Positions 19,757 to 49,906 of a stretch of 53,703 nucleotides of DNA are shown in pieces. Source of the stretch: Candidatus Magasanikbacteria bacterium RIFOXYC2_FULL_42_28 (lineage in GTDB: Bacteria; Patescibacteriota; Patescibacteriia; Magasanikbacterales; GWA2-37-8); contig MFQZ01000004.1 in the NCBI GenBank assembly GCA_001784435.1, positions 1 through 53,703 of the forward strand, in the 5' to 3' direction. The position numbers and the translations under genes were made by a program. The number at the start of each line of letters is the position of its first letter. Positions within the stretch are counted from its first letter, which is position 1. Below the pieces are notes generated by a model. It was not told the DNA's origin. It did not search any database and saw only the letters and a program-made list of their open reading frames with translations.

Positions 19757-19765
19757 ATATTCATT

Positions 19766-20377: not shown

Positions 20378-20410
20378 TTTAAATAATAATTAATTATTAA
20401 TTTATTTTGT

Positions 20411-20734: not shown

Positions 20735-20736
20735 TT

Positions 20737-20934
20737 ATGACAGACGCGGAGGAACAAATTTTAAAAAATGAAAAAATTGATCCGATTGTCGCGGTCGCCA
20801 ATTTCGCGTTGGCAAAATTTTTGGCAAAATTGAATGTGGCGGAAGGAGAAACGAAAATTTTAGAAGATGAGTTGCGTGCTTTGGAGCGGGATGTTAAAAT
20901 GAGAAAAATAAAAACTATTATTAATAAAGAATAA
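20737..20934 (+). CDS. Small hypothetical protein, 65 aa
   Basis: Tightly packed between neighbouring ORFs (2-4 nt gaps). Confidence 0.7.
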   Translation: MTDAEEQILKNEKIDPIVAVANFALAKFLAKLNVAEGETKILEDELRALERDVKMRKIKTIINKE

Positions 20935-20938
20935 TAAT

Positions 20939-23900
20939 ATGCCAGATAGACATGTCCAACAAAGCACGCCCGAAGCGTGGCACAATTTCGATGCTAGTAA
21001 TTTTGCGGTTGGCGATTATGTCACTTATTTTGATCCGGCCGACGAGCGGTGGCATTTTGCTCAATTAGATGCGAATCCACGCCATAATACTCGCAATAAA
21101 ACAGTGGAATTGTATTTGAACGATGAAAACGGCGCCCCCCTCCCTGATTTAGAGTCGCCCTTGCCACCAAAGAGGATTCATCTACAAGAAGGCGGAGTAA
21201 TAATTAGGGGGCAAAGGTATGAGGTAGATCGAAATTTGCCTTATAACGATATTGTAGTTGACGAAAATGGTAACGCCTATGCCACTTTATGGCCGGTTGA
21301 TGCCACCGGCAATACCATCCCTGATTTGGATGAATTACCTAACATGAATTTAAGCATGTTGGAAAAAGTTCAGCGCACCAGCCGTGATGAGGCCGAAGCG
21401 GATACTCGCGTCGCCACTATTCATGAATTGCAGAATCGTACGAACGATGTCGCCACTGTTAAACGCAAAGAATTTGTCAAACGGTTAAATGATCTGGAAA
21501 AAACCATTGAAGATTTAATTAACAAATTGGGATCTTGGAACGAGTGGAACGACCGCGATGATCGGGAGATTAATGCTGTTAAACAAGAGGCCGCCCAGAT
21601 CTATAAGAAAGTCGACGCGGATTTGGAGAAACTGCGCCGTGATTTGGATGCTGTTTTATCTAAACAAGCCGAGGCCGGTAATGAGGCAATTACCGAAGGA
21701 CGCCGAAAAGTCGCAGTTGATTTGGACGGGGCTGTTTCAAAGAGCGCGAGTAAGATTGCCAAGGCGTGGGAAAAATACGATAAAGAGGTGGCCGACTCCA
21801 AGAAAATTTGGGATCAATACGATAAAGACAAAAAAGCGTTTGATGATGCCGCCGCGGCTCCGGCTCCGGCCGCGGGGGGCAAACCACCCCGACCGGCCGC
21901 TCCTAAGAAAGAACCGACGATTCCTACTGTTCCCCGAGAGTCCGTTATCACACCGCCCACGGAACCACGCGATAAAAATTTTATTGCTGCCGGCAGTTAT
22001 AACAGTTTAGCAACTCATAGGCCTCCGCTTAGCGCCGAACACGCCGAGATAATTCGTTTGGTGACTGAGCGGTTTGCGGCTTGGGAGAACGGGGTAGACG
22101 GTACACCTTCTCCCGAAGATCGGACGGAAAAAACCGGTGAGATATTTTTGGCGGTATTAGAAGAGATGAAAAACGCGCCCAAAGTGGAAGCCGAGCCGTT
22201 TGATTTTGCCAAAGAAAAAGAAGAATTGGAAACAGAGGCCAAAGCCCTTTGGGACCGCGCTAGCGACGGCGGCTACGAGCCGGTAATGGATTTAATCAGA
22301 AATAGTCGAGAGGACATTCATAATCTGAAAAAGAAAGATAAAAATGCCCAAAGAAACATGGCGGAAATTTGGAAAAAATTGGGTAATATTGAAATTACTT
22401 TATTTAAAAAAGAGAGAAAAGATAAAACACCGAATGAAAAAGTCAAAGAACGGGATATCGACATCCCCGATACTTTGGTTGGAGAAATTATCCAATCGCG
22501 TCCGCAGGAATTGTTCAATTTAATGTTGGATATGTATCGGAATGAGTATTCGGAAACAGGCTATACTTCCAAAGGTTTGCCAATGGAGGATATTGTTGCT
22601 GATCGTTTGAAAAATTTATTCGCCGCTCCGCCTGCCGGTCCAGCCGGTCAAAGAATTTTGGCAGATTTAGCTCGACACGGTATTCGCGATTGGAATCATT
22701 TTACCTTGCTGTGGGAGCAGAAATACGCTTTGCGCGCTTCCAAAGTATTGCACGAAACTGTTCGTGCCGATATCAACAATGATACTGCTCGCCATATTAG
22801 CGGTTGGGACAAAGCGCGAGCGATGTTACCGCAACTTGCCAAAAGAATTGTCACCACAGCCGTATTAGTTGGCGGTTGTGCCTTGGGCGCTTCGGTGCTG
22901 GTCCCAGCTGGCGCGACTGCTTTAGTTGCCGGGGCAGCAGTTGTTGGTGGTGGTACTGTCGGTGGCGCTGTTCGCGGTGTTTTACAAAAATTTTGGTTTG
23001 GCAGAAAAGTCCAAGAAGATCGAGACAAAAAAACCATGGAGGACTTGACCAACCGCACGCGCGACCAGCGCATTCAAATGTATTTGGCGCAACGGTTCAA
23101 TTTTAATCCCGCTGATTTTGATATTAATAGGAGTTTTAACGGCGGAACAGTTAATGCTGTCACCGGTTTAAACAATGCTGCCGATACGGTTGCGGAACTT
23201 TCCGCTTTGATTGCCGAGGCCACGCGGGTGGCCGGAAAAGAGGCGATTGAGATTGATGATGCCGACCGTCCGCCGGCCGGAATTGTCCTTACCGGCGATG
23301 CTTTGCGAACCTATGTTCGCGCTTTGGCCGCTTGGCGCGCGCGTGAACACGGCCGAGAAATTTTACCGGAAGAAAAGAAAAAATTAGCCGAGACAATAAT
23401 TGGTATAGTAGAGGGTAAAAATGAATTGGCGGAAGGCGACAAAGCCGCAGCCACCGGTTTGACCGGTGAGGGATTGGAAATGTATATCAATGTTTTGAAA
23501 AAAATTCGTCGTGAAGGTGATAGTCCCAATGAAAAACAGAAAAAAGCGTGCGCTTTGGCAATCGCGCGTTTAACGCAAGGCGCCGAAGTAACACAGGTTT
23601 TGGCTGCTGCCGGATCTGACCCAATCGTTATTCGGTTGTTTGATGGCATTGCCCAAGGATTTAGCGGTCAATCAGCGAAAAAATATGGTTGGAAAGGGGT
23701 CGCCGGAACAGCTGCTTTGGGTGGTGGTATGGCCGGAGCGTTTTTACTAAACAGTGGTGCCGCCCGGGCGGTGATGGGCGCGATTGGTGGAGGCGCGAGC
23801 GGTTATCATATGGGTGAGGGTATTCGCAAAGGGCGTGAATATCGAGATGGGCGAACGCGGTTTGATGTTGTGTTTACACAAACACGAACTTTGCAGGATA

Positions 23901-26269
23901 GATTCAATGTGAATCCGGCTACTCTTACCGCGGACGAATTAAATGATTTGGCGGATGACGTTCGCCTGCTGAATCGTTGGCTAAAAAATAATGCCGATAC
24001 GATTGAAGATTCGCGCGCGGTGGATTATATCAATCAGAATCCGGTTACTCGCAAACAATTGGAAAATTTGGTTTACGAGGCCTACAATCGCGGTGTGTTT
24101 GCCCGTTTGGCCTTGGAAAAACTCAACAATTTTACCAATTCACAAGTTTTGGGTAGTTTGGAGAGTGATAATTTGGGTGTAAAAGCCGATGGCAATATTA
24201 GTCAACCGGACAAAGATCGCGAACGACGCCGAATTTTACTTTGGCGTATTGGTTCAACGGCAGTGGGCGCTTTAGCTGGCGCCGGTTTGGCTTGGGGGGC
24301 CGGTGAATTGTTTAGTCGCGCTAAAAATGCCGGCGCGGATGCTTTGCGTGAAAAATTTGGCATTGGCGCGGTGGCGGCCGGAGCGACTGTCCCCGGCAGT
24401 GGCGCTGGCGGGGCGGAACATGTGCCGGGTGGCCGTAGTGGCCACGGTGCTGAAGTAATTAGTCCCGACCCGGCCACAAGTGGTGGCACCGAACATTTAC
24501 CAACCGGCGAAAGACCGCCGGCGATCGCGCATTATGAATTACACGACACCCGGCTCCCGGGAGCTCCCAAATACGAAGGCATGTGGCGCGCGATTGAAAG
24601 TTTCAAGGGCGATTCTCATTTTAAGGGAATGTCCAATCATGATTATACCGATTGGCTTAAAACCGAAATGGAACGGATGGGTTATAAATTTTTAGACGGT
24701 ACCCACAAAATCGCGCACCCGTTTGATGAAAATCCCGGCGATAGGGTAGAATTATTTGTTGATGGTGAAGGTAATCCACACGTGCGCTTTTTGAATGCCG
24801 ATGGTTCGGATAAAGTGGCAATGGACCATTATAATATTGAGACGCGAGTGGGTGGAAAACCAGTGGTGGGAGCGGAAATAGAAACAAAGTTTGCCGGCTT
24901 TAATAAATTGGCGCATGAATTTGCGGACCAATGGAACAAGCCGGGTGCCGATCATGATAATTTAATAAAGAATTTTCCAATTGCTGATTTGGACTCTATT
25001 AAATCCATCAATGTTTACGGAGAGCGCGGAAGTGTAGTGGTTGAATTTACTGACAATACACAGGGGCTTTATCATCCGGTAAAAGCACTGACTGGAAATG
25101 GGTGGATTTTGCAGTCTGGCCGTGAAAATTTACAAGATGTTTTTGAGCAGGGAGTATATGATTACAATTCAAGCAAGTTGCACCCAATAGAAAATGGCGG
25201 TGTGAGATACTATGAATTGCCGGGGAAAGTTATGACTAACGGGAATAGGGCTGGTCAAGATTTTTCGATGTTATATGATATTGGTGGCAATCCAGTTGGT
25301 TATAAATTAGATGGTCTAGTAACAATTGGTCCATATCATTCAGCGATAATGGAAGGCAATAGATGGCCGGTCGGCACACCAGCGCATATTGATGTTCGCG
25401 GTGAAGGATTCAAATGGTTAACAGGCGACGCTATTAATTCAACCGACCAAGCCAGAATTTCCGCCGCGGCCGGCGGGTATGATGTCGTGCCACGATATAC
25501 CGGTGGTGGGGGAGGGACGGGGTTAAGGCCGGAGGCGGGGGCGAGCGGTGGCGGTGTGCCAATAGAAACACATCCACCGGCCAATGATGCCGTGTTGCCG
25601 CCAGAGGCGAGGGGTGCTGTCGCTGGCGCGGCCGTGAGCGAAGCCGATGTTTTTCAAGATTCTTTGCGCCCTGGTAAGGGGGCAACTGCCCAGTCGGCTT
25701 CGGCCGAACAGGTATTGTCGCCATCTGCTGTTGATGTCAGTGTTTCGCGCGGTTGGTATGGTGGTCGTGTTCTTGAGTTGTTTACTAAAGAGTTTAATTC
25801 TGTATCGTCCGAAGCGAACAATCATATCGGCAGTGCGGTAGATTCGTATAATAGACAACTATTGGCCGATGTGAAGGTGCATCCGGAAAATCACCAGCAA
25901 TTTATCTTGGCTAATAAGACCGACAATGAACAAGCGATGCTACAGGCCTATGTCAGTGATCCTTATTTTAGAGCAAATTTTCCAGATGAGTTAAAATTAG
26001 CGTTTGATTATGGCGGTACGGGTATTGAGGAAGCTAAAGTCGTAGGTGGTGATACCGCCAAGGTAATTGGTAATGGGTGTAGCGCATTTACCGCTTCTGT
26101 TGGCGACAGCGGTAAGAAATACTTTCATTATGACCCAGATTATACCTATGCTCGTGCTGTCAGCGGGGATTTAGTCGCCACTAAAGATGGTAACACTTTT
26201 TTGGTAGAATTCAATGGGCTTAATGACGACGGTACCCCCAAAGTTGATTACCAACCATTTAGCAGTTAA
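20939..26269 (+). CDS. Giant 1776-aa protein with coiled-coil, Pro/Ala linker and three Gly/Ala-rich hydrophobic segments
   Basis: Uninterrupted ORF. Hydrophobic GxxxG-rich stretches (IVTTAVLVGG..., GVAGTAALGGG..., IGSTAVGALAGAG...). Confidence 0.9.
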   Translation: MPDRHVQQSTPEAWHNFDASNFAVGDYVTYFDPADERWHFAQLDANPRHNTRNKTVELYLNDENGAPLPDLESPLPPKRIHLQEGGVIIRGQRYEVDRNLPYNDIVVDENGNAYATLWPVDATGNTIPDLDELPNMNLSMLEKVQRTSRDEAEADTRVATIHELQNRTNDVATVKRKEFVKRLNDLEKTIEDLINKLGSWNEWNDRDDREINAVKQEAAQIYKKVDADLEKLRRDLDAVLSKQAEAGNEAITEGRRKVAVDLDGAVSKSASKIAKAWEKYDKEVADSKKIWDQYDKDKKAFDDAAAAPAPAAGGKPPRPAAPKKEPTIPTVPRESVITPPTEPRDKNFIAAGSYNSLATHRPPLSAEHAEIIRLVTERFAAWENGVDGTPSPEDRTEKTGEIFLAVLEEMKNAPKVEAEPFDFAKEKEELETEAKALWDRASDGGYEPVMDLIRNSREDIHNLKKKDKNAQRNMAEIWKKLGNIEITLFKKERKDKTPNEKVKERDIDIPDTLVGEIIQSRPQELFNLMLDMYRNEYSETGYTSKGLPMEDIVADRLKNLFAAPPAGPAGQRILADLARHGIRDWNHFTLLWEQKYALRASKVLHETVRADINNDTARHISGWDKARAMLPQLAKRIVTTAVLVGGCALGASVLVPAGATALVAGAAVVGGGTVGGAVRGVLQKFWFGRKVQEDRDKKTMEDLTNRTRDQRIQMYLAQRFNFNPADFDINRSFNGGTVNAVTGLNNAADTVAELSALIAEATRVAGKEAIEIDDADRPPAGIVLTGDALRTYVRALAAWRAREHGREILPEEKKKLAETIIGIVEGKNELAEGDKAAATGLTGEGLEMYINVLKKIRREGDSPNEKQKKACALAIARLTQGAEVTQVLAAAGSDPIVIRLFDGIAQGFSGQSAKKYGWKGVAGTAALGGGMAGAFLLNSGAARAVMGAIGGGASGYHMGEGIRKGREYRDGRTRFDVVFTQTRTLQDRFNVNPATLTADELNDLADDVRLLNRWLKNNADTIEDSRAVDYINQNPVTRKQLENLVYEAYNRGVFARLALEKLNNFTNSQVLGSLESDNLGVKADGNISQPDKDRERRRILLWRIGSTAVGALAGAGLAWGAGELFSRAKNAGADALREKFGIGAVAAGATVPGSGAGGAEHVPGGRSGHGAEVISPDPATSGGTEHLPTGERPPAIAHYELHDTRLPGAPKYEGMWRAIESFKGDSHFKGMSNHDYTDWLKTEMERMGYKFLDGTHKIAHPFDENPGDRVELFVDGEGNPHVRFLNADGSDKVAMDHYNIETRVGGKPVVGAEIETKFAGFNKLAHEFADQWNKPGADHDNLIKNFPIADLDSIKSINVYGERGSVVVEFTDNTQGLYHPVKALTGNGWILQSGRENLQDVFEQGVYDYNSSKLHPIENGGVRYYELPGKVMTNGNRAGQDFSMLYDIGGNPVGYKLDGLVTIGPYHSAIMEGNRWPVGTPAHIDVRGEGFKWLTGDAINSTDQARISAAAGGYDVVPRYTGGGGGTGLRPEAGASGGGVPIETHPPANDAVLPPEARGAVAGAAVSEADVFQDSLRPGKGATAQSASAEQVLSPSAVDVSVSRGWYGGRVLELFTKEFNSVSSEANNHIGSAVDSYNRQLLADVKVHPENHQQFILANKTDNEQAMLQAYVSDPYFRANFPDELKLAFDYGGTGIEEAKVVGGDTAKVIGNGCSAFTASVGDSGKKYFHYDPDYTYARAVSGDLVATKDGNTFLVEFNGLNDDGTPKVDYQPFSS

Positions 26270-26296
26270 ATTTAGTAGTTAAAATTCTATTAAGAT

Positions 26297-26323
26297 AAAA
26301 TAGGCCTCAAAAAGGCCTATTTT
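26297..26323 (+). terminator. Intrinsic terminator
   Basis: aaaataggcct-caaaa-aggcctatttt. Confidence 0.85.
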
Positions 26324-26392
26324 ATTATGCCAAATTTTGGCTAAAATTAGCATAAATTCAATCAAATTGGGGATAAAATTAGGGTAGGGGGC

Positions 26393-26421
26393 TTGACAAG
26401 AAGCCAAAAGTGTGCTATAAT
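26393..26421 (+). promoter_or_regulatory. Perfect sigma70 promoter TTGACA-N17-TATAAT
   Basis: Exact consensus, with extended TG before the -10. Confidence 0.88.
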
Positions 26422-26426
26422 GACCA

Positions 26427-26622
26427 GTCGTGAAAATATAAAAAAGTTTACTTTTATATATTTGAGCGACGCAGGCATTTCAAGCTTTGCTTATAATGCT
26501 TGGTCAGGATATGAAAGGCGGATGCGTTTTGAGAGAGACGCGAATTCGCCCCAATACTGAAAACGACATACAATCTAAATAAATTGTAATAACCTCTCTC
26601 ATATTATATAGGGAGGTTTTTT
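26427..26622 (+). ncRNA. Candidate ~200-nt structured ncRNA of unknown family
   Basis: Lies between a perfect promoter and the terminator aacctctct..agggaggtttttt. Four hairpins by eye. No listed plus-strand ORF. Confidence 0.55.
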
Positions 26623-26972
26623 AATAAAGTATCGCTCTTTACAATATAAGTCACTCAAAAGCAATAGATTGCCGTCTGTTTTACTGGAATACTCAAGTAA
26701 AGCAAACGGCGATCTAATCCGAAGTTGATGATTTCTGATTCTTGGTTCGTCGGGCTCTTCGCAAGAAGAAACCGACATTAAAGGCCTTCTAGGTAGGCCA
26801 GTATAAAGAAACGCGGACAAACATCAGTTTGTTACGCACTTTATCAAACCTAAACCGTCTTACTCTGAATTTTAGAGCGACGGAAGGAACTGATGGAACC
26901 AAGATGAGGATTTCTGATACTGAAGAGGTGGTTGGAACCGTATGTTCGTAGGTGCGTTACATAGGAGGTCAC

Positions 26973-27488
26973 ATGACCCGCACCACTCAGGCCCTGCTCG
27001 GCGTGTTCGGTCTCGTCCTGGTCGGCGCCATCGCGTTCCTGTCCTTCACCCACACCTCCCGCACGGAGGTGGTGGAGGAGGTCCAGATCCTCCGCCAGGA
27101 GGTCCAGGACGCGAAGTACGCAAAGGCGGACGCCATGTCCGACGAGTTCAAGCTCGTCCGCCGGGAGTTCGCCGCGGCCGACGCCGCGCTCTCCGAGCGC
27201 CTGTCCGGTGTGGAGGGCGGCCTCAAGTCCGCGAACATCCGCATCCGGAAGGCCCGCGAGGAGGCCGGCAACGCGTTGGCCAGCGTCATCAACCTCGAGG
27301 GAGCCCTCGCCCGCAAGGCCGACGCCGAGGCGGTCGAGGACGCGCTCGCCGCCAAGGCCGACGTGGCCGCCCTCGCGACGAAGGCCGACAGCGAGGCCGT
27401 CGAGGCCAACTTCGCGCTCAAGGCCGACGTCGACGCGCTCGCCCGCCGCCTGGCCGGCATCGAGCCGCGCGTCAGCGCCCTCGAGTGA
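26973..27488 (+). CDS. Cassette 1: GC-rich membrane-anchored coiled-coil protein, 171 aa
   Basis: AGGAGG at 26963..26968. N-terminal TM, KAD repeats. Sample line 27121-27180 is 42/60 GC. Confidence 0.85.
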   Translation: MTRTTQALLGVFGLVLVGAIAFLSFTHTSRTEVVEEVQILRQEVQDAKYAKADAMSDEFKLVRREFAAADAALSERLSGVEGGLKSANIRIRKAREEAGNALASVINLEGALARKADAEAVEDALAAKADVAALATKADSEAVEANFALKADVDALARRLAGIEPRVSALE

Positions 27489-27492
27489 TCGA

Positions 27493-27728
27493 AGCCCCAC
27501 ACCATGTGTGGGCAAGCCCCCGCGTCGGGGCAGTGCGCGCAATGTGCACGAAACGACGCCGCGGCAATCCGCCACACGGATCCTTTACCTGGATCACAGC
27601 GGACCGCGCAGTAGGGGGAGGAGAGAATGAGACTATCGAGAGTTTCGGCAAAACTCCTCTCCCTTCCCCTACATCTGTTCATTAAATTGTTAGTGCGCAG
27701 ATGAAGTGGAAGTATTTGTTCTTTAAAA
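27493..27728 (+). ncRNA. Cassette 1 structured 3' element ending in boxA-like tgttctttaaaa
   Basis: Several short hairpins, long stem 27611..27672, last hairpin 27673..27702, purine linker, motif at 27717..27728. Confidence 0.55.
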
Positions 27729-27765
27729 TTTAAGGAGGCGTGTATTCGCCTCTATTTATTTTTAA

Positions 27766-27852
27766 CTGTCATCCCGAGCGTAGCCGAGGGATCCCTTAGA
27801 GTTGGTGTTGTTATCAACTTTAATAAATCCTTTGTTGCGCCCGGAATGACAG
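27766..27852. repeat. TGTCAT-family palindromic element between cassettes 1 and 2
   Basis: ctgtcatcccgagcgtagccgagggatc ... ccggaatgacag. Same family as 15812, 39272, 48722. Confidence 0.8.
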
Positions 27853-27939
27853 TGCAGTTTTTGCTGTTTTCCTTGTTCGTGCTCGCAACCCACCCGATAA
27901 TCGGGGCCCGACAGCGTCGGGTTTTTTGGAGGAAGTCTC

Positions 27940-28578
27940 ATGACTCGTGCACAGTTCTGGTCGTTTTTGGTGGCGGTGGTGGTCGTGGGCATCGTGGCAG
28001 TGCTGGGGTTCGGTCTCGGCTTCACCAAGGCCGACGAGGACGAGGTGGTCGCCGCCCTGGCGACCAAGGCGGAGGCCACCCGCATGGCGGCCGAGTTCGT
28101 CGCCGTGCGGGGAGAGTTCGCCGCGGGTGACGCCACTCTCGCTGCTCGCCTCACCGGCGTGGAGGGGCGGGTCTCCACCGTGGAGTCCCGCCTCACCGGC
28201 GTGGAGGGTGGCCTGAAGGCGGCCACTCGGCGGCTCTCCGAGCTGCCGCAGAAGGCCGATCTCGACGCCCTCGCCGCCCGTCTCGGTTCGGCCGAGGGTA
28301 CGCTCGCCTCGGCCCCCTGGTCGACTGGCCTGGCCACCTTGGCCGGTCGGGTCGCGACCCTCGAGACGCCCGCGCCCCCGATCGTCGCCCCCGTGTCGCC
28401 CACCTGCACTGGCTGGTCCCTCGGCGTCCGCGGCGCGCCCATCTCCCCGGTGGGTTGCTACGCGACCTGCGTTGCGGCGAAAGCTGTGGCGCAGGGTGGT
28501 AGCCGGTTCAGCGGCTCGGTCTACGGGCGGACATCCGCCCAGTGGATTGAGTCGAGCGAATCCTGCCCGGCCGAGTAG
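27940..28578 (+). CDS. Cassette 2: GC-rich paralog of cassette 1 with a Cys-containing C-terminal domain, 212 aa
   Basis: GGAGG SD. N-terminal TM. EFxxVRxEFAAxDAxLxxRLxGVEGGLK shared with cassette 1. Internal 42-bp duplication. Confidence 0.85.
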
Positions 28579-28587
28579 TTCTTTCAC

Positions 28588-28798
28588 ACCCCACCGCACG
28601 ATCTCCCGATCGTAGCGGTTGGCGGCACACAGCGCGTCTTTCCTGTAAGCGCTGGATCGGTCAGACGGTTTGTCTCCCCGTGAGACGAGTCGGCTTCCGT
28701 TGGAAAGGGTCCCGAGTTTGTTGGCAACAACACTCTCGGGCACTCTGGCATGTTGATTTGTTAATCAAGTCAACAGTTAGAGTAGGTGTTCTTTACAA
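28588..28798 (+). ncRNA. Cassette 2 structured 3' element (173 bp shared with cassette 3)
   Basis: 28588..28760 matches 29602..29774 with 2 mismatches, then gtcaacagttaga and tgttctttacaa. Confidence 0.7.
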
Positions 28799-28933
28799 AA
28801 AATTAAATTTTCCGGCGTGAACTTTTCATTGTTTAGAAAAATAATGAAGAGCTCACGCCGGATCCGATCGAGGCATATTGTGGACGATCCACAATGTTGC
28901 TTTAGTTGGGATTATCTGGTAGAGGAGGTTCCT

Positions 28934-29596
28934 ATGGGGCGCAAACCCCCGACCTCGGCGCGCGTCATCGCGACGTTCGCCATCCTCTGCGCCACGGCCT
29001 CCCCGGCCGCGGCGCAATCTGAAACCGGTGACGCGGCGCCCGCCGCTGTCACCCCTGATCCGGCCGAGTTGCCGGTGCCCCCAACCTCACCCGACCCGGG
29101 TGGCTGGAAGTTGGTGCTCGCCCCCGAGTTCAGCGTCGGGGTGGCGCACTCGGAGGCCGGCTTCGACGCCGACTCCGAGGATGCCTACCTCGGCACCGTC
29201 TCGGCCACCTTGCTCCTGCGCCACTCGGCCCTGTCCGGTGGTGAGCCCTCATCTTTCCTGTATGGGCTTCGCGGCTTGTACGGGTTGGGTGGTGGCTCGT
29301 CGGGTGCACGCCAGTTGTGGGGCGTCGCTGGCCTTCTGGGTTGGCGCGCGTCTCGCGACCGCGTCGTCGGGGGCATTGGTCTGTCCTACATCCAGTATGA
29401 CAAGGCAGGCGGGGATTGGGTCCGCCGCGGTGGCGGCGTTCCGCTCTGGATCGAGATCAAATTGGGGGATAGCACCTCCAATTGGTTCCTCGGTCTGGAA
29501 GGGACGCCCGCCATCCTCTGGCGGGACCTGGACGATGCCCCTGCGTTCGCCTTCGGGCTGAACGCGGGGGTGCTCTACCACATCCCCCTCTACTAG
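28934..29596 (+). CDS. Cassette 3: GC-rich secreted protein resembling a small outer-membrane beta-barrel, 220 aa
   Basis: AGGAGG at 28923..28928. Signal peptide (ASPAAA-Q), Pro-rich linker, Gly/aromatic-rich amphipathic strands, C-terminal GLNAGVLYHIPLY. Confidence 0.75.
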   Translation: MGRKPPTSARVIATFAILCATASPAAAQSETGDAAPAAVTPDPAELPVPPTSPDPGGWKLVLAPEFSVGVAHSEAGFDADSEDAYLGTVSATLLLRHSALSGGEPSSFLYGLRGLYGLGGGSSGARQLWGVAGLLGWRASRDRVVGGIGLSYIQYDKAGGDWVRRGGGVPLWIEIKLGDSTSNWFLGLEGTPAILWRDLDDAPAFAFGLNAGVLYHIPLY

Positions 29597-29601
29597 TCTT
29601 T

Positions 29602-29817
29602 ACCCCACCGCACGATCTCCCGATCGTAGCGGTTGGCGGCACACAGCGCGCCTTTCCTGTAAGCGCTGGATCGGTCAGACGGTTTGTCTCCCCGTGAGAC
29701 GAGTCGGCTTCCGATGGAAAGGGTCCCGAGTTTGTTGGCAACAACACTCTCGGGCACTCTGGCATGTTGATTTGACATACGAAGCATCGAGTCAACAGTT
29801 AGATTGGTTCTTTAAAA
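29602..29817 (+). ncRNA. Cassette 3 structured 3' element (near-identical to cassette 2 element)
   Basis: 173-bp direct repeat, different loop in the final hairpin, ggttctttaaaa at 29806..29817. Confidence 0.7.
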
Positions 29818-29979
29818 TTTAGAAAAATAAATTAAAATATAAATGATACTGCGCGCGACTGGCGCGGAAAGAGAAATTATTATTTGATTTTTCTTTCTGC
29901 GTCAGTTTGTAGTTCGGTGCTCCGAGGATGGTCCTCGTAGGTGCCGGCGCAGCAAATCGCATAGCAAGGAGAAAAAACT

Positions 29980-31530
29980 ATGCGTACCACCAACATCGCG
30001 GTGGTTCTCTGTCTCGGACTCTGGACCGCTTCGTGCGGCACCAAGGCCGAGGCCCCCGGGCTCGACGTGCCCGCGGACGACGATAACACGGCGGATGACG
30101 ACACCGCCGACAACGACGACCTCGTCGTTTGCCTCGAGTGCAACGACGATGACCCGTGCACCACGGACTGGTGCCGGGTGTCACCCCCCCCTGGGGTCGA
30201 CTCGTGTGTCCACATGAACGGGGACGCCGGCGTCACCTGCGACGACGGCAACGGTTGCACCGAGACCGACGTGTGCGACGGGGTGGGCACCTGCGTTGGC
30301 ACGCCCCTGGCGTGCGACGACGGCGATGCCTGCACCGACGACGCGTGCACCGACGGCGTGTGCAACAACACGTCCGTCACCTGCGACGACGGCGATGCGT
30401 GTACCGCGGAGTTCTGCGGGACCATCGCCGGCGGTACCGGTGGGTGCTTCTCGGTTCCCGTGGCTGGCGAAGGCTGCGAGGAGGAGTCCAACTGTACCGT
30501 CGCCAGCGATGGCGTCGGGAATTTCTCCCTGACCTGCCCGGACGGCTCCGTGGCAGAGTGGGGTGACGGCGCGGATGGCGCGCCGGGAATGGACGGAGCC
30601 GATGGGGTCGATGGGACCCCGGGTACCGACGGCGTCGATGGCAGCGACGGCACGGACGGAACCGATGGCGCGCCGGGAGCTGACGGGCTCGACGGTGCGG
30701 ACGGGGCGGATGGCGCCCCGGGTGATTCGTGCAGCGTGACTGTGCTTCCGATGGGGTGCATGGTCATTGTGTGCGGGGATGACGATCCTTCCCCGCCCCT
30801 GTGCCCGGACGTGTCCGAGGCCGGATGCACCACCACGCAGGACGGCGACTGTGCTGTCATCAACTGTGTGGGTGGATCTACGTCGCGGGTGTGCCCCACC
30901 ACGACGGCTCCTGCCTGTGTCACCGACGGCGACTGCGCCGACGGCAATGCCTGCAACGGCCACGAATCGTGTGTGGCCGGGGAGTGTGTGAATGGGGTCG
31001 TGGTGTCGTGTCTGGCCGCGGACGCGTGCCATCTCGTCGGTGAGTGTGATCCGGCGAATGGCCTGTGCTCCTCGCCTTCCGCCCCGACGGGGACGGTGTG
31101 CGACGACGGCAACGCCGGCACCACCGGCGACCAGTGCGACGGCGCTGGCCTGTGTGTGGGGGTGGCCACGCCCCCCAGCCCCGATGCCGATGGCGACGGG
31201 TACAGCATCGCGGCCGGCGATTGCGACGATGACCCCACCGTGGGTCCGTCGCCGGCCCGATGGTGCCGGGGGAGCGACACGAAGAAGTTCCTCGTGATCG
31301 ACTTCCTCGGAAGTGTGGCCCCGGCCTGCCCAGCCGGAAGTGTCGAAGTCGCGCTGACCGACGGGTCCGCGCTCAACAACCCCGGTATCCACGATACCAC
31401 CGGGGATGGCTTCGACAACAACTGCAACGGCATCATCGACGAGGGCGGCGGGGACCAGTGCACCTGGTCGCACATGTCGTCCGGTCCCGCGCTGGACTAT
31501 CTCGTTCGATGCCCGTGGATGAACCCGTAG
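29980..31530 (+). CDS. Cassette 4: GC-rich Cys-rich lipoprotein with CDDGxACT repeats, collagen-like Gly-X-Y tract and metal-binding-type motif, 516 aa
   Basis: AAGGAG SD, lipobox WTASC, repeated CDDGNxCT, GADGAPGMDG... tract, DADGDGY..GDCDD and DGFDNNCNGIIDEG. Confidence 0.88.
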   Translation: MRTTNIAVVLCLGLWTASCGTKAEAPGLDVPADDDNTADDDTADNDDLVVCLECNDDDPCTTDWCRVSPPPGVDSCVHMNGDAGVTCDDGNGCTETDVCDGVGTCVGTPLACDDGDACTDDACTDGVCNNTSVTCDDGDACTAEFCGTIAGGTGGCFSVPVAGEGCEEESNCTVASDGVGNFSLTCPDGSVAEWGDGADGAPGMDGADGVDGTPGTDGVDGSDGTDGTDGAPGADGLDGADGADGAPGDSCSVTVLPMGCMVIVCGDDDPSPPLCPDVSEAGCTTTQDGDCAVINCVGGSTSRVCPTTTAPACVTDGDCADGNACNGHESCVAGECVNGVVVSCLAADACHLVGECDPANGLCSSPSAPTGTVCDDGNAGTTGDQCDGAGLCVGVATPPSPDADGDGYSIAAGDCDDDPTVGPSPARWCRGSDTKKFLVIDFLGSVAPACPAGSVEVALTDGSALNNPGIHDTTGDGFDNNCNGIIDEGGGDQCTWSHMSSGPALDYLVRCPWMNP

Positions 31531-31790
31531 CGGGTATCCAACGCAGTGAGCTGGTGAACATAACACCGGCAATATAGCAAAAAAATGTCGGGAGATACCG
31601 TAATTCTCCTAGTCCGCCCAGTAAAGGAGGGGTGGAAATGAAACGGAACACAATGCGTCCGTGGCGCGCAAGCGTCTGGATGTTTGACAGCAGGCGTCGG
31701 TGGGGAGGTCTCATACTTCCCTGCCGACGCCCGCCCGATTGAGAACATAAAGATTTGTGTTTTCAAACAGGGTGAAGCGATTTAAAGTTT
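31531..31790 (+). ncRNA. Cassette 4 structured 3' element
   Basis: Short hairpins, long stem 31693..31731, last hairpin 31739..31766, purine linker, degenerate gcgatttaaa. Confidence 0.5.
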
Positions 31791-31962
31791 GAAGATATAG
31801 TTTTACATATTAACGTCTCGGTTCGAAAATGCAAAAACTTCGTTTTTTCATTTTGCTCACCTTCGAGACGCTAATAAAAATACCACCAAGTTCGTCTCTC
31901 TCATCCTATGTTTTTTTAGACAAAGGAAGAAGAACTCGGTGGTATTTTTGTTTTATTTATAC

Positions 31963-32316
31963 CTATGCGACCTGCAATTGTTTTACTTGTCTTTCTAAAA
32001 AGTCCACTCGTTTGCGTAACTCCAGAATATCTTTGGCCGCGGCATCTTCATCGCCAATAATGCGTTGTTCCAATTGATCCAACTGGCGATTAATTAATTT
32101 TAACTCAGAGTGAATATACGCAAGCGCGCTGGCCATTTCAGATTTAAATTCCGACAGTTCGCCTTTGACTGACTTTATTTCCGCGCTTAGTTCTCCTTTC
32201 AATTCATCAAACCGCCTGTCCACGCTTTTAGCGAATAATTCCATTGCCTCTAAAATTTCGTTATTACTCACCTCTTTTTTGGCTGTCATATTGTTTGACA
32301 TTAATTTTTTAAGCAA
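31963..32316 (-). CDS. Small coiled-coil hypothetical protein (start uncertain, 32316/32301/32289)
   Basis: Heptad-repeat character. AT-rich, genome-like codon usage. Confidence 0.75.
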   Translation of the reverse strand: MLKKLMSNNMTAKKEVSNNEILEAMELFAKSVDRRFDELKGELSAEIKSVKGELSEFKSEMASALAYIHSELKLINRQLDQLEQRIIGDEDAAAKDILELRKRVDFLERQVKQLQVA

Positions 32317-32392
32317 ATTTATTATATCATTGTTTTAAAATAATTGTCAAACGCAATGGATTTTTTAATAGTAATATGGTAAAATATATCTT

Positions 32393-33778
32393 ATGATTGC
32401 ACAAACAATTAGTACCAGATCAACCAGATTAAAATTTTTGGTCGTGATTTTAGCGACTGTTTTGGCTTTTGGCGCCACTATTTTTTACGGCACTTTTGGC
32501 GCGGTTTTGGCCGGAGTGGTTTTTTTGATTTGGTTTTTTTCCAGCCGTTTGACGATTGGTTGGTATATTTTGGTGGCGTTGTCACCCTTTATCGGCTGGC
32601 AAATTTATTTGGAACATTATTTTCGCGGGTCGCCGTTTTTTGCCGGTTGGAACGCGCCACCGGTGGAGTTTTGGGCGATTTTAATGTTGCTGGCTTTTGC
32701 TTTAGATTATGTTCGTCAATTGTTTGACGGCGCACAACCGCGCTTGATTTTTCCTCGGGCTAAATATTTTTTGTTGTTTGGCGCGAGCGCTTTTCTGTCG
32801 CTCATTAACATCCCGGCGTCCGAACGCTTGGCTGGTGTTAAATTTATTGCGCACTTTTTTTTATTTACTTATTTTGCCTATGTTTTTTTGGGAGCCAATA
32901 TTGTCAAATCAAAAATTGTTTGGGAAAACAGTTTAAAAATTTTAGTGGGCGTTGGTATTTTCGGCGCGGCGACGGGGGCGTGGTCGTTGTTTATCGGCGC
33001 TTGGAATGTGGGCGGATTAGAGCGCGCAGTGCCATTGCCCATTGGCGGAATTTGGCCATTGGGCGACCAGCATATTTTACTCGCGGAATTTTTGCTCATT
33101 GCTTTAATATCTGCTTGGTATTTTTACTTAACTCGCAAAACATTTTTGACCGGTTTGTTGACGTTATTTATTGGCGTTGTCGGCCTGCTGACCTGGTCGC
33201 GTTCTTTTTGGTTGGCGATTATTATTACCGGCGCGGTGGTGGGATTTCAATATCGCGCTAAAATTAATTGGGCGGGGATAGCGCAAAAATTTTTGCCGCT
33301 TTTGATTATTTTATTATTCGTGGTCGGTTACTGGTTTTATTTTATGTATTCGGCTGATATGGTAATTGGCAGTTCTAATAGCGCGCGCGCGTCTGGCGCC
33401 GAATTCGCCTGGGAGTTGGCGCGGACTTATCCGTTAATCGGGGCGGGAGTGGGTAGTTTTGTGCCACGCTTAAGCGAAATATATTATTATCGGATTGATT
33501 TTGGTGACGCCGTGGACGCGCTGGGCTGGCCACAGAAAATTTTGGCTGAACAGGGATTTTTAGGTTTTGGCATATTCGTCGGTCTTATCGCCAGCGTTTT
33601 ATATTCTTTGCGGAGCGCGTTTTTGGCAACTGGTAGTCGTGCCAATCGTATTATTTATTTTTCGGCCTTCTGTCTATTTTTGGCACCGTTAATTTTTGAA
33701 ATGTTTACCACTAATTATTACAGCGCGCGCTTGTGGGTACCATTGGCTTTGGCGCTCGCGGTTATCGATGATCTATGA
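32393..33778 (+). CDS. O-antigen ligase / Wzy-like membrane protein
   Basis: Multi-TM. LTWSRSFW, YPLIGAGVGSF, ILAEQGFLG resemble the Wzy_C layout. Confidence 0.8.
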   Translation: MIAQTISTRSTRLKFLVVILATVLAFGATIFYGTFGAVLAGVVFLIWFFSSRLTIGWYILVALSPFIGWQIYLEHYFRGSPFFAGWNAPPVEFWAILMLLAFALDYVRQLFDGAQPRLIFPRAKYFLLFGASAFLSLINIPASERLAGVKFIAHFFLFTYFAYVFLGANIVKSKIVWENSLKILVGVGIFGAATGAWSLFIGAWNVGGLERAVPLPIGGIWPLGDQHILLAEFLLIALISAWYFYLTRKTFLTGLLTLFIGVVGLLTWSRSFWLAIIITGAVVGFQYRAKINWAGIAQKFLPLLIILLFVVGYWFYFMYSADMVIGSSNSARASGAEFAWELARTYPLIGAGVGSFVPRLSEIYYYRIDFGDAVDALGWPQKILAEQGFLGFGIFVGLIASVLYSLRSAFLATGSRANRIIYFSAFCLFLAPLIFEMFTTNYYSARLWVPLALALAVIDDL

Positions 33779-34863
33779 AAATAAAAATTTTACAAATTAT
33801 TCCATGTTTTGCGCGAGGCGGAGCCGAAACCATGGCGTTAAATTATGCCAAATTTTTGGATAAAAATAAATTTGAAGTGATTACCGCGAGTTGTGTTGAA
33901 GGTGGGGAATTGGAAAAAGATTTCGCGACTGCCGGCGCGCCTGTTTGGGTTGGCTCCAGACGAAAAATGTTCGGTCGATTAGGTGTTTGGTATGCTTTGG
34001 CCAAATTTACCAAAGAGCAACGGCCTGATATTTTGCATACGCATTTATTTGGGGCGGATTTGGTCGCGTGGATTTTGAAAAAAGTTTTCAGAATTAAATT
34101 TTATTGGGTAGTTACTGTCCACAATCGTGAGCGCGGATTTGGTTGGTGGCGGATGCATGTTTGGAAAATGATTTTACGGTCGGCTGATAAAATAATTGCG
34201 GTTTCAGCCGCGACCGGCGAGTATGTTCACGAATATTTAGACGTTTCCGCTCATAAGATGACGGTGATAAATAATGGCATTGATTTGAGCCCTTGGTTAA
34301 ATGTACCGGCTGTTTCCGAGAGTAGCGTTACGTTGCGTTTGGCGGTGGTTGGGCGTTTGACTAAACAAAAAGGACAGGAATTTTTATGGCGCGCTTTGGC
34401 AAATTTGAAACATCCTTGGCAGTTGGGGGTGTTTGGCACTGGTGAAGATGAAAAAAAATTAAATCAACTGGCGCAAAAATTAAACATTGCTGATAAAATC
34501 ATCTGGCACGGTTTGATAGTCGATTGGTCTCGTGAATTAGCCGATGTTAATGTGGTGGTGGCACCAGCGCTCTGGGAAGGATTGAGTTTGGTGGTAATGG
34601 AATCAATGACCGCCGGCAAGGCGGTAGTCGCAAGTTTGGAAGCCGGCCAGGGCTTAATTGAAAATAATATTACCGGTTTGCTGGTACGGCCCGGATCGGT
34701 TGGGGATTTGTTCGGCGCGCTTGAATCATTGTCGGTTGATCACAAAAAAATTAAATTGCTTGGTAACAACGCTCGCGCTTATGCTAAAAAATATTTTGAT
34801 ATTAAACAAAATACGTTGGCAGTAGAAAAAGTTTATTGGCAAATTTTAAGTGGACAGAAATGA
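33775..34863 (+). CDS. GT4 family glycosyltransferase
   Basis: GGAE, PDILHTHLF, VINNGID, VGRLTKQKG, EGLSLVVMESMTAG. Confidence 0.92.
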   Translation: MKIKILQIIPCFARGGAETMALNYAKFLDKNKFEVITASCVEGGELEKDFATAGAPVWVGSRRKMFGRLGVWYALAKFTKEQRPDILHTHLFGADLVAWILKKVFRIKFYWVVTVHNRERGFGWWRMHVWKMILRSADKIIAVSAATGEYVHEYLDVSAHKMTVINNGIDLSPWLNVPAVSESSVTLRLAVVGRLTKQKGQEFLWRALANLKHPWQLGVFGTGEDEKKLNQLAQKLNIADKIIWHGLIVDWSRELADVNVVVAPALWEGLSLVVMESMTAGKAVVASLEAGQGLIENNITGLLVRPGSVGDLFGALESLSVDHKKIKLLGNNARAYAKKYFDIKQNTLAVEKVYWQILSGQK

Positions 34864-36854
34864 GACACTCAAATAATTTTAAATTTTATCGTTTAATCAC
34901 GGCCGTTTTTACCGGTTTATTTTTGTTGGTTTTTGGGTTTTGGCATTTGACCGCGCAATCAGCGCCACTTCTCGCCAATTATTATCTACCCTGGCAAATT
35001 CCGGCGAGCGAAGTGGCCAATTTGGCCAAGTATGATTTATTGGTGTTAGATATGGAAACGCAGGTGACCAGTCGGGCGCAAATTGAAAAAATAAAGAGTT
35101 TGAATCCGGATATAATTTTGTTGGCCTATGTAACTTCGGAAGAAATCAGCGCAAGCGCGGCTACGTCCGGAAGCAGTTTACGGCGAAAATTACGCGCCGG
35201 CATCGCGCCCGAATGGTTTTTAAAAAAGTCCGATGGCAGTAGTTTAAGTTTTTGGCCAGGCACAGTGATGTTAAATCCTTCCGATAGTTGTCCGATTGTT
35301 AATGGCTGGAAATGGAATAGTTATTTGGCGAATTTTATGACGCGAGAGGTTTTGGCGACCGGTTTATGGAGTGGGGTTTTTTATGATAATTCGTTTGACA
35401 GTATCACTTGGTTTTCCGGATCAGGGATTGATTTGAATTTGGATAAGATAAATGACATTGATCCGAATAATTCTTGGCGTGTCGGTATGCGTCAGTTATT
35501 TGCGTCCACCTACGCGACTGGTAAAAATTATTTAGTGGTTGGTAACGCGTTTGTTGACACCTATCGCCACGACAATAACGGGGTTATGATTGAAAATTTT
35601 CAGAATTTACCGTGGCAGGACGTTTTGCGAGTTTATCGCAGTCAATTAAGCGGTCAACCGCAACCGCGGGTGGTAATACTAAACGGCAATACCGGCAATA
35701 CGGGCGCGCGCGCGGACTATCGCAATGTGCGTTATGGTTTGACGACGGCGCTCATCGGCGGTGATGGCTATTTTGCTTTTGATTATGGCGATAAAGATCA
35801 CGGTCAGACCTGGTGGTATGACGAGTATGATGTTAATTTGGGCGCGCCTTTGGGCAAAGAAGTGCAAAATGGGGGAACGTATCGCCGTGATTTTGAGAGT
35901 GGCGTGGCTTTAATTAATCCGACCGAACAGACACAGACAATTGATTTGGGCGGAGAATATGAAAAAATTATTGGCACGCAAGACAAGGCGGTCAACAGTG
36001 GCGGAATTGTGAGTAAATTAAATTTGCCGAGTAAGGATGGCATTATTTTGCGCAAAACATTTCAAGATGTCAGCAATGTCTTTTTTTTAAACGGTGGCTT
36101 GGCGCGGTTTTTTACGCCTGAAGGCAAACGAGCGCGCAATGGTTTTTTTGCGTTCACGCTGGGATTTGCCGGTGGCGATATGATTTACAAGGGGGATTTA
36201 GACGGACAGACCGGTTATGAAAAAATTGCCGGCGAAAACCAAATTTTTTATGTGTTAGATAGCACCGGTAAAATTTGGCAAGACAGTTGGCCGTTTTTTA
36301 ACAGCGGTAATCCGGCGGCGACGCCCGCTAATTTAAATTTAAGCGTGGGCGAATTGGAAAAAGGTAAAGGCAAAAAAATTGTTTTGTCCGGCAGTAGCGG
36401 GGGCGCGGTTTTAATTACCACTTATTATGGCGCGCCAATTTATGAAAAAAAATATCCGCTGGGCGGAAAATATAACAAAGGTTTTAGCACGGCGGTGGGC
36501 GATACCGATGGTGGCGACGGCGAAATTATTTTGGGAACCGGCGCGGGCGTGGCAGGCGAAGTTTTGATAATGGATGCGAGCGCGTCCAAAATTAAAAAAA
36601 GATTTTATCCGTATGGTTCCGGTTTTAAAGGTGGCGTGTTTGTGGGGGCGGGTGATATTAATGGCGACGGTCGCGCGGAAGTTTTGACCGTGGCCAAAGT
36701 AAACGACAAAATATTAGTAAAAACATTTTCCGGCGTCGGCAAACAATTAAAAGAATTTTCCGCTGGCACCGCTTTGGGCTCCAATCGTTTTAGTGTGGGC
36801 GTGACTGATGTTGATGGCGACGGTAAGGTGGAGATCGTGGTGGGGAGTAATTAA
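34836..36854 (+). CDS. Secreted putative glycoside hydrolase (TIM-barrel, GHL15-like) with C-terminal FG-GAP-type repeats (start may be 34859)
   Basis: LAKYDLLVLD, WSGVFYDN, GVMIE, WWYDEY, YRRDFESGVALINP; GDINGDGRAEV and DVDGDGKVEIV repeats. Confidence 0.75.
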   Translation: MANFKWTEMRHSNNFKFYRLITAVFTGLFLLVFGFWHLTAQSAPLLANYYLPWQIPASEVANLAKYDLLVLDMETQVTSRAQIEKIKSLNPDIILLAYVTSEEISASAATSGSSLRRKLRAGIAPEWFLKKSDGSSLSFWPGTVMLNPSDSCPIVNGWKWNSYLANFMTREVLATGLWSGVFYDNSFDSITWFSGSGIDLNLDKINDIDPNNSWRVGMRQLFASTYATGKNYLVVGNAFVDTYRHDNNGVMIENFQNLPWQDVLRVYRSQLSGQPQPRVVILNGNTGNTGARADYRNVRYGLTTALIGGDGYFAFDYGDKDHGQTWWYDEYDVNLGAPLGKEVQNGGTYRRDFESGVALINPTEQTQTIDLGGEYEKIIGTQDKAVNSGGIVSKLNLPSKDGIILRKTFQDVSNVFFLNGGLARFFTPEGKRARNGFFAFTLGFAGGDMIYKGDLDGQTGYEKIAGENQIFYVLDSTGKIWQDSWPFFNSGNPAATPANLNLSVGELEKGKGKKIVLSGSSGGAVLITTYYGAPIYEKKYPLGGKYNKGFSTAVGDTDGGDGEIILGTGAGVAGEVLIMDASASKIKKRFYPYGSGFKGGVFVGAGDINGDGRAEVLTVAKVNDKILVKTFSGVGKQLKEFSAGTALGSNRFSVGVTDVDGDGKVEIVVGSN

Positions 36855-36855
36855 A

Positions 36856-49905: not shown

Positions 49906-49906
49906 A

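Follow-up and report, generated by a model that had tools for sequence, protein, structure and literature searches.

Why should two neighbouring genes that encode unrelated proteins be followed, almost directly after their stop codons, by nearly the same 173 nt of strongly structured sequence? The question is raised by a chromosomal locus of Candidatus Magasanikbacteria bacterium RIFOXYC2_FULL_42_28, a groundwater bacterium of the Candidate Phyla Radiation (CPR), in which we analysed positions 1 to 53,703 of contig MFQZ01000004.1 (GenBank assembly GCA_001784435.1), a 53.7-kb stretch of ~42% GC referred to here as the window. The two copies of the element, E1 and E2, lie downstream of genes that we call g2 and g3, within a run of four same-strand genes (g1 to g4). 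Our best reading is that the element belongs to a lineage-specific class of structured 3′ flanks that accompany every GC-rich gene for a secreted protein in these Candidatus Magasanikbacteria. Within that reading our leading explanation, held tentatively, is that the element is a duplicated or gene-converted 3′ untranslated region (3′-UTR), that is, a stabiliser and terminator module of g2 of which a second copy lies after g3.

A repeat search of the window recovers a 173-nt direct repeat (28588-28760 versus 29602-29774) at 99% identity and a spacing of 1014 nt. The copies of this core are identical at 171 of 173 positions (98.8%), the differences being 28637 T/C and 28700 T/A, which agrees with the two mismatches counted in a first-pass annotation made from the sequence alone. 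Gapped local alignment shows that the homology is longer, ~230 nt (28580-28809 versus 29597-29833). On the left it begins immediately 3′ of both TAG stop codons (TAG-TTCTTTCAC-ACCCC in E1, TAG-TCTTT-ACCCC in E2), and the ungapped core begins 9 nt (E1) and 5 nt (E2) past the stop, just as the annotation had placed it; on the right the unit continues beyond the core at ~70% identity, with indels, through GTCAACAGTTAGA, which is present in both copies after the final hairpin, into an AT-rich stretch containing GTTCTTTA. To the left of the element stands TAG-TTCTTTCA and to its right GTTCTTTA. Protein comparison confirms that the products of the two upstream genes are unrelated to each other.

This arrangement is real and not an assembly artefact, because independent assemblies agree on it (the same sequence occurs in two ENA assemblies, one JGI metagenome and two Logan runs) and because the breaks between short-read unitigs coincide exactly with the repeat edges. 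The sole variation found between assemblies is a single-nucleotide polymorphism (SNP), 28618 G>C in E1 (ENA ERZ27254748), which is the single difference over 12.9 kb. It may reflect polymorphism between strains or the way in which the repeat was assembled, or it may hint at a third copy. The near-identical core beside a tail of ~70% identity indicates recent copying or gene conversion; a core at 98.8% next to a tail that has diverged so far and acquired indels fits an older duplication followed by conversion of, or constraint on, the core.

The sense strand folds more stably than its complement. Its RNA fold z-scores are -6.3 for E1 and -5.3 for E2 versus only -3.7 for the antisense, its fold energies are -89.6 and -87.4 kcal/mol versus -73.8 and -73.4 kcal/mol (a sense advantage of ~15 kcal/mol), and it contains 6-8 G·U pairs versus 1-2 on the antisense. 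This stability and G·U asymmetry argue for an RNA with the orientation of the genes over a DNA cruciform or a bottom-strand recombination site. Because a promoter scan finds no sigma-70-like promoter in front of the element, it would be transcribed together with the preceding gene, and on the folding predictions it is most likely an RNA co-transcribed with that gene; a candidate promoter for g4 lies just past E2 (29811-29838). Of the earlier suggestion of a recently copied RNA or single-stranded DNA module, then, the structure and the copying or gene conversion stand, but single-stranded DNA is disfavoured by the G·U asymmetry.

Five hairpins (P1, P2, P3, P5 and P6) emerge as robust from the ensemble, their pair probabilities being no lower than 0.93. 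The stem of the last, P6 (TGTTGATTTG / CAAGTCAACA), is kept in both copies and its loop is swapped (5 nt versus 13 nt), with shared sequence resuming afterwards, as had been noticed before; one A-to-G change within the stem leaves the pair intact (U-A to U-G). The two differences within the core had been assigned to predicted loops. Position 28637 does lie in the loop of P2, and 28700 is unpaired in the minimum-energy fold of E1 and in the consensus, but its counterpart in E2 (29714 A) is paired in that copy's own fold, within an AUCGG/CCGAU helix, so that the assignment fails there. A multibranch domain closed by GUCAGA/UCUGGC, also suggested earlier, is not the favoured fold: the helix is formable at +7.7 kcal/mol over the minimum-energy fold, in which UCUGGC pairs instead with GUUAGA and lengthens the last hairpin, and helices able to close such a domain are only weakly predicted (probabilities 0.3-0.6) and are not the same in the two copies. 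A pseudoknot might form between the P2 loop sequence (U/C)CUUUCC and its complement GGAAAGG (28702-28708), for which the duplex energies are -8.5 and -11.4 kcal/mol.

It is plausible that the module works, and was copied, as follows. RNA polymerase would pass the stop codon into ~200 nt that form five independent and very stable hairpins; P6, with its 16-18 bp, and the U-rich GUUCUUUA tail would serve as an imperfect intrinsic terminator or 3′-end anchor, and the hairpins upstream of it would block 3′-to-5′ exonucleases and so stabilise the upstream message. Either a duplication or the recombination of a g3-bearing segment within the module may have brought g3 and its AT-rich upstream spacer between two module copies, after which the 173-nt core would have been kept near-identical by gene conversion or by purifying selection. 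The left limit of a conversion tract would be set by the coding sequences, which are unrelated, and its right limit by the 8-nt indel in the loop. The genome offers a precedent for recent tandem duplication in its leucine-rich repeat (LRR) genes (1049-nt period, 100% identity), and the sibling element after g1 has been conserved between species better than the protein encoded beside it.

Several observations weigh against this explanation. P6 of E1 has no proper U-tract right after the stem, where a canonical intrinsic terminator has one within 0-2 nt, the U-rich run beginning ~5 nt further on, and neither copy is called by a simple terminator scan, whose loop and bulge limits barred both calls (in E2 the stem is followed directly by UUGGUUCUUU). 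The strain SNP at 28618 disrupts a pair in P1, on the 3′ strand, and with two near-identical copies only, the structure has no covariation support. The stop-codon-exact left edge, together with the flanking TTCTTT(C)A / GTTCTTTA, would fit an inserted portable unit, and a purely neutral recent duplication, to which we return below, would also account for the repeat.

The element is an orphan: a two-copy, strongly structured 3′-UTR repeat that belongs to no known family, and a modest find alone. The wider blastn and covariance searches proposed in the first-pass annotation turned up only the two known copies. Specifically, no third copy was found in the window with blastn, nhmmer or a covariance model of both copies (R1), with filters on or off, nor did R1 find the element in any of the fetched loci, including a 21-kb locus from a related species, and blastn did not find it in the phage and plasmid collections. 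Exact 20-30-mers of the element are absent from the genome, metagenome and viral contig collections searched, the metagenome-contig negative being weak as that collection evidently lacks the JGI sample carrying this locus. Six-frame translations of the element, compared with 5.8 billion proteins, matched only a local and spurious antisense open reading frame (ORF). Rfam 15 recognised only the transfer-messenger RNA (tmRNA) and two tRNAs in the whole window at gathering score, and in 27600-30100, at E up to 10, the only returns were weak miRNA-type noise, none of it overlapping the core of the element; the HEARO/ωRNA, ribozyme and group II domain families that had been named as candidates gave no match to the element, and neither did riboswitch or leader families.

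The surroundings of the element suggest that it is not alone in kind. All four genes, g1 to g4, are followed by ~200-250 nt of stable sense-strand structure (z -5.3 to -6.8) that closes with a hairpin and a T-rich tail. Homology between the element and the 3′ flanks of g1, of g4 or of the related species is not significant, and a by-eye likeness of P1 to a hairpin after a 104-aa ORF of the related species is likewise not significant. An identical 15-mer, GTTCTTTAAAATTTA, does occur after the terminal hairpin in the g1 flank and in the g3 flank (E2). The element itself starts at the stop codon of a gene rich in GC at third codon positions (GC3) that encodes a secreted protein, continues as ~200 nt of sense hairpins and ends with a hairpin and the motif GYTCTTTW, which are the features by which we propose to recognise the class.

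A comparison with the related species supports selection on at least part of this class. A protein of a Candidatus Magasanikbacteria metagenome-assembled genome, OGH94074.1, falls in the 90%-identity cluster of the window's MraY, and the related contig (MFRE01000012.1 of GCA_001784475.1, of which 21 kb are available; hereafter L022) is syntenic with the window, the two being 65-83% identical in nucleotide sequence. L022 lacks ~19.7-36.9 kb of the window (~17 kb; compared with L022 15118-17439), a stretch that encodes Wzz, DUF5663, a 1776-aa protein, the GC-rich genes g1 to g4, a 461-aa protein, GT4 and GHL15; the GC-rich island therefore sits in a strain-variable surface locus, and 19700-36900 as a whole looks like a variable cell-surface locus. 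L022 (40% GC) has GC-rich units of its own elsewhere (15400-16560 and 18400-19790), comprising a membrane-anchored coiled-coil ORF of 235-240 aa (GC3 0.77) adjoining SmpB and two short GC-rich patches with small ORFs that have ribosome-binding sites. The 3′ flank of the large ORF is again strongly structured (z = -6.8), and its first ~70 nt significantly resemble the g1 flank (score 39 versus a null maximum of 28); between the two adjoining proteins, that of g1 and that of the L022 ORF, no similarity is detectable. Two hairpins of this shared flank differ in their stems. Hairpin Hc reads GUGCGC/GUGCAC in one species and GUACGC/GCGUAU in the other (G-C to A-U) around an unchanged GCAAU loop, and hairpin Hd reads GAUCC/GGAUC and GACCU/AGGUC (U-A to C-G and C-G to U-A) ahead of a conserved ACAGCGG. 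These changes are compensatory, and therefore at least one member of the class, the g1-type flank, is under constraint at the RNA level.

The motif is shared by both species. In the window and in L022 alike, each GC-rich unit is preceded on its own strand by G[TC]TCTTT[AT], placed directly past a terminator-like hairpin. The plus strand of the window (53.7 kb) has six occurrences, four of which are these sites (26634, 27718, 28788 and 29807); of the remaining hits, one falls inside a GIY-YIG coding sequence. In L022 the sites at 19667, 16356 and 15799 are all three of the minus-strand occurrences in 21 kb. The motif could be the U-rich tail of a terminator typical of this lineage, a regulatory site or an insertion core.

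Among described repeats, the nearest in position are REP/BIME, ERIC/IRU and Correia elements, transcribed intergenic repeats past stop codons whose hairpins shield mRNA from 3′ exonucleases and can terminate transcription. They are ~35-150 nt long and consist of single or paired palindromes; their copies run to tens or hundreds, and often they have inverted-repeat ends or are associated with RAYT or another transposase. The element resembles them in its stable hairpins just downstream of stop codons, but in the sequence covered here their short size, palindromic form, high copy number and transposase link or inverted ends are all missing. The TRIT (Tuberculosis Rho-independent terminator) elements of Mycobacterium are likewise sequence-conserved structured elements placed tightly at stop codons, present in 147 copies, each a single and largely bidirectional palindromic hairpin (PMC3152330). 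In common with TRIT, the element has a conserved stable RNA structure near the stops of unrelated genes, a GC-rich coding context and a presumed role in 3′-end formation; unlike TRIT, it is a strand-asymmetric array of five hairpins over ~200 nt, in two copies, in a CPR host, and the two show no sequence similarity. By analogy, then, the element would be new as a family and yet work like a known kind, the structured repeat close to a stop codon.

The setting is more interesting than the element, in that a streamlined CPR lineage of 40-42% GC keeps genes for secreted or surface proteins at GC3 77-97%; nothing relevant to GC-rich genes in Magasanikbacteria turned up in a search of the literature. 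The conservation of the g1-type module suggests that the 3′ modules are functional, and in that case they would amount to a new class of 3′ element on mRNAs, in a phylum whose RNA biology is almost unexplored.

The genes concerned form a 4.6-kb island (~26950-31760; Table 1) in a stretch of bacterial chromosome that carries ligA, PPDK, Mur ligases, a PBP, MraY, SmpB with tmRNA, IF3 and L20. Island genes have GC3 of 0.82-0.97 versus 40-47% in the neighbouring host genes, all four start with a signal or membrane anchor, and all have a strong GGAGG ribosome-binding site. The products of g1 and g2 are 34% identical (E = 5e-10). Neither g2 nor g3 has homologues in the protein collection searched, a PDB sequence search was also empty, and the AlphaFold model of g3 (pLDDT 39.5) is unusable; relatives of the g4 repeats are annotated as 'cysteine-rich repeat' or 'MYXO-CTERM' proteins of Deltaproteobacteria and Polyangiaceae. 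The spacers between the genes are AT-rich (down to 28% GC) and contain further hairpins, and the next start codon after the element is reached only past 140-185 nt of unrelated spacer. Neutral decay cannot account for such AT-rich spacers beside unameliorated codons. No direct or inverted repeats were found to bracket the island as a whole.

Table 1. Positions in the window of the repeat units, their predicted hairpins, the island genes with their flanks and motifs, and a repeat family of the host intergenic regions.
Feature	Position	Strand	Remarks
E1 repeat unit	28580..28809	+	past g2 TAG; hairpin array, then AT-rich tail; core 28588-28760; fold z -6.3
E2 repeat unit	29597..29833	+	from just past g3 TAG; core 29602-29774; fold z -5.3
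P1	28593..28619	+	11 bp, loop UCCC; mean pair probability 0.96; E2 equivalent 29607-29633
P2	28630..28654	+	6 bp, 13-nt loop G(U/C)CUUUCCUGUAA holding 28637; pair probability 0.97
P3	28666..28692	+	11 bp including three G·U, loop CCCGU; pair probability 0.93
P5	28709..28741	+	CCCGAG..UGUUG-GCAA-CAACA..CUCGGG, GNRA-type tetraloop; probability 0.93-1.00, -16.8 kcal/mol
P6 of E1	28742..28783	+	18 bp, 5-nt loop, terminator-like, then AGGUGUUCUUUAC; probability 0.99, -17.7 kcal/mol
P6 of E2	29756..29805	+	same stem, 13-nt loop ACAUACGAAGCAU, then directly U-rich UUGGUUCUUUAAAAUUU
GTTCTTTA tail motif	28788..28795	+	after E1; also 29807-29814 (E2) and 27718-27725 (g1 3′ hairpin)
GCTCTTTA motif	26634-26641	+	upstream of g1
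g1	26973..27488	+	GC3 0.97; N-terminally anchored coiled-coil protein; distant g2 paralog
g1 3′ flank	27489..27712	+	fold z -5.6; sequence unlike the element; conserved in related species
g2	27940..28578	+	GC3 0.86; membrane-anchored coiled-coil protein, Cys-containing C-terminus; orphan; E1 downstream
g3	28934..29596	+	GC3 0.82; signal peptide, Gly/aromatic-rich, beta-strand-like, ends ..PLY; orphan; between E1 and E2
g4	29980..31530	+	GC3 0.82; lipoprotein-type, CDDGNxCT Cys-rich repeats, collagen triple-helix stretch
g4 3′ flank	31531..31775	+	fold z -6.8; sequence unrelated to the element; G·U 16 sense versus 7 antisense
Host intergenic repeat family	17631-17754, 18553-18682, 40747-40856, 43346-43461, 49091-49134, 49906-50029

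Foremost among the alternatives is that the repeat is a neutral by-product, a recent segmental duplication or conversion tract that copied a 3′ flank from g2 to g3 or the reverse, with hairpins that follow from GC-richness and have no function. It would explain the small number of copies, just two, as well as their near identity, their spacing of 1 kb and the absence of relatives from the collections searched; the genome has other very recent tandem duplications, and the single SNP breaks a pair. We nevertheless regard it as unlikely: the fold energy lies far past that of shuffled controls and is strand-asymmetric, the tail is far more diverged than the core, so that the duplication is not simply young, and the g1 flank is conserved across species with compensatory changes.

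Quite unlikely, in our judgement, is a portable cassette or recombination module, in which GC-rich units would be inserted after a terminator-like hairpin and GYTCTTTW to build an integron-like array distant from its integrase; on this view the element would be one such unit, lacking an ORF and with the core on both sides, or else would have supplied the homology or the site by which a circle bearing g3 was integrated. The gene g3 and its spacer do lie between direct copies of the element, as integration of a circle predicts, and the element is bordered by TAG-TTCTTTCA and GTTCTTTA. The motif after a hairpin precedes 4/4 GC-rich genes of the window and 3/3 units of L022, the GC-rich units occupy different loci in the two species, and the composition is a mosaic of ORFs at GC3 0.82-0.97 and spacers at 28% GC. 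Against these points, the motif is short and AT-rich, the island has no flanking direct repeats, and alleles that are empty or hold another cassette were not seen, the assemblies being identical. Nor does the window contain a tyrosine recombinase or transposase. No Phage_integrase domain was found in Pfam scans of window ORFs of at least 100 aa or in the precomputed Pfam annotation of the remaining called genes, and the sole recombinase is of the serine type (51759-53363), 22 kb away and beside tRNA-Glu.

The integron comparison can be made at the level of the site. In an attC site, of 57-141 nt, the inverse core RYYYAAC (R″) pairs with GTTRRRY (R′) and the bottom strand forms an imperfect hairpin, and arrays without an integrase are known as CALIN. 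Likenesses to such cassettes include tandem, unrelated ORFs of foreign composition, each with a structured element straight past its stop codon, a variable central loop, a GTT-containing 3′ core (GTTAGAG / GTTAGAT) and near-identical neighbouring elements. However, the R′-like GTTAGAG and GTTAGAT are partnered by CTCTGGC, not by RYYYAAC, so that the attC inverse core site is absent and a bottom-strand R-box would contain two A·C mismatches. The shared unit of 173-230 nt is longer than any attC, forms five hairpins and pairs better on the top strand by ~15 kcal/mol; long AT-rich spacers with hairpins of their own separate the units, and there is no IntI in the 53.7 kb. Phage morons offer a looser parallel, in that the island genes are autonomous units of spacer, ribosome-binding site, ORF and terminator with a composition sharply unlike their surroundings, but the island units are chromosomal and there are no phage genes nearby.

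A broader form of the same idea is that the element is a module of an undescribed CPR system of gene capture and shuffling, in which GC-rich surface-protein ORFs of foreign composition are combined with exchangeable 3′ RNA modules. ORFs and ORF-less pieces would be installed right after a terminator-like hairpin and GYTCTTTW, and the copies around g3 would be the footprint of an insertion. We think this very unlikely; if the motif does mark insertion sites, the locus would reveal a route by which episymbiotic bacteria gain and express foreign surface proteins.

We give equally little credence to a regulatory RNA, whether a small RNA (sRNA) derived from the 3′-UTR and ending at P6 or an attenuator of read-through into g3 and g4. 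The C/U-rich apical loops (UCCC, UCUUUCC and CCCGU) would pair with G-rich Shine-Dalgarno regions, and three robust hairpins do have pyrimidine-rich loops, all island genes having strong GGAGG-type sites; g3 and g4 are moreover downstream of the element, and a stable terminal hairpin with a U-rich tail is found in 3′-UTR sRNAs (PMC9438474). As in CpxQ, NarS and DapZ (PMC9438474, PMC7038943), a structured region between stop codon and terminator hairpin could be released as a stable RNA, and one module carried on two mRNAs would couple both. The element is, however, larger and more structured than the typical seed-bearing 3′-UTR sRNA. A search for RNA duplexes between the element and all 5′ regions was uninformative, the predicted pairing tracking GC content without specificity, and the 140-185 nt of spacer intervene before the next start codon. 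As for an attenuator or riboswitch, P5 and P6 share UGUUG/CAACA stems, but forced 2:3 pairing reaches -8 versus -40 kcal/mol, so there is no competitive antiterminator fold, and no Rfam riboswitch or leader was matched.

The variable P6 loop had been proposed as a guide or specificity segment, with a search for its complements as the check; that search, run on the window, found no match above chance for either loop or its complement. The loops cap a terminator-like hairpin, where loops vary freely. A coding role fares no better: one frame stays open throughout the element, and neither difference would alter an amino acid in that frame, but a start codon, a ribosome-binding site and a codon-position GC signal are all absent, and the 8-nt indel in the P6 loop interrupts the frame. 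A common read-through extension of g2 and g3 is ruled out on our own reading, as the frame of the element differs relative to each.

Hardly credible, and largely refuted, is a mobile-element end or remnant, ribozyme or guide RNA (a miniature inverted-repeat transposable element (MITE) or PATE, an insertion sequence end, ωRNA/HEARO, a retron or diversity-generating retroelement (DGR) template, or a group II fragment), for which the imperfect flanking direct repeats TTCTTT(C)A, the conserved GTTAGA after the last hairpin and the DGR-like placement of both differences at a plus-strand T (minus-strand A; two sites, not significant) might be cited, since no Rfam 15 family matched at gathering score or at E up to 10, the window encodes no TnpA, TnpB, IscB, reverse transcriptase or intron-encoded protein, and the protein search and the search for loop complements gave nothing beyond what is described above. 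A MITE has target-site duplications and terminal inverted repeats of ~10 bp or longer. The element would have only a 5-bp terminal inverted repeat (ACACC/GGUGU end pairing, probability 0.58), and the TTCTTT(C)A / GTTCTTTA repeats at its flanks, which do not match perfectly, belong to the homologous unit; with regard to a dispersed repeat of the MITE, REP or ERIC kind, the count is two copies in 53.7 kb and zero in the 21-kb locus of the related species. As an ωRNA it would neighbour ORFs for secreted or membrane proteins without nuclease domains, and as a DGR template it would have both copies outside ORFs, whereas the variable repeat of a DGR lies within the 3′ end of its target ORF, the two differences leaving the adenine test powerless.

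Several other features of the island and its counterpart in L022 deserve mention. At the left edge of the island, 26393-26625 holds a perfect sigma-70 promoter (TTGACA-17-TATAAT, with a TG extension) and, ~200 nt further on, a canonical terminator (CCTCTCTC..GGGAGG TTTTTT) with no intervening ORF, making it a candidate small RNA or leader without an Rfam match. A 10-mer, TCGTAGGTGC, occurs in the 5′ leaders of g1 (26946-26955) and g4 (29935-29944), ~30-45 nt before their starts and with marginal significance, and GTAGGTG is also found after P6 in E1. Palindromes of the type GTCATCCC..GGGATC / GGAATGAC occupy spacers by GC-rich genes in both species (window 27766-27850, L022 18656-18729), and a Logan unitig that ends at 27791 suggests that the palindromic unit is multi-copy in the metagenome. 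Between a GC-rich gene and the next host gene of L022 (18435-18567), a 36-nt imperfect inverted repeat (GGCCGTCATATAT...ATATATGACGGCC) surrounds a ~60-nt GC-rich core and may be a MITE-like element or a small structured RNA.

Elsewhere in the window, a repeat family of the host intergenic regions (TTGGAAATTGGGAATTTGGATTTTGAAATTT and TTGACA-containing relatives; Table 1) lies just upstream of several start codons and is absent from the island spacers. The LRR-protein genes, in tandem at 1-2191, also contain internal 63-nt repeats, and the contigs of other assemblies end there. At the opposite end of the contig, the large serine recombinase by tRNA-Glu (51725-53363), another point at which contigs end, is found only on contigs of 50-200 kb; a 208-kb JGI contig with the neighbouring genes lacks it, which suggests a variably present integrated element. 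Finally, at 14689-15104 the 5′ 30 nt of tRNA-Asp are exactly duplicated 338 nt apart (14737-14766 and 15075-15104), and the duplicates bracket what is, on our own reading, a putative small minus-strand ORF of the GIY-YIG type.

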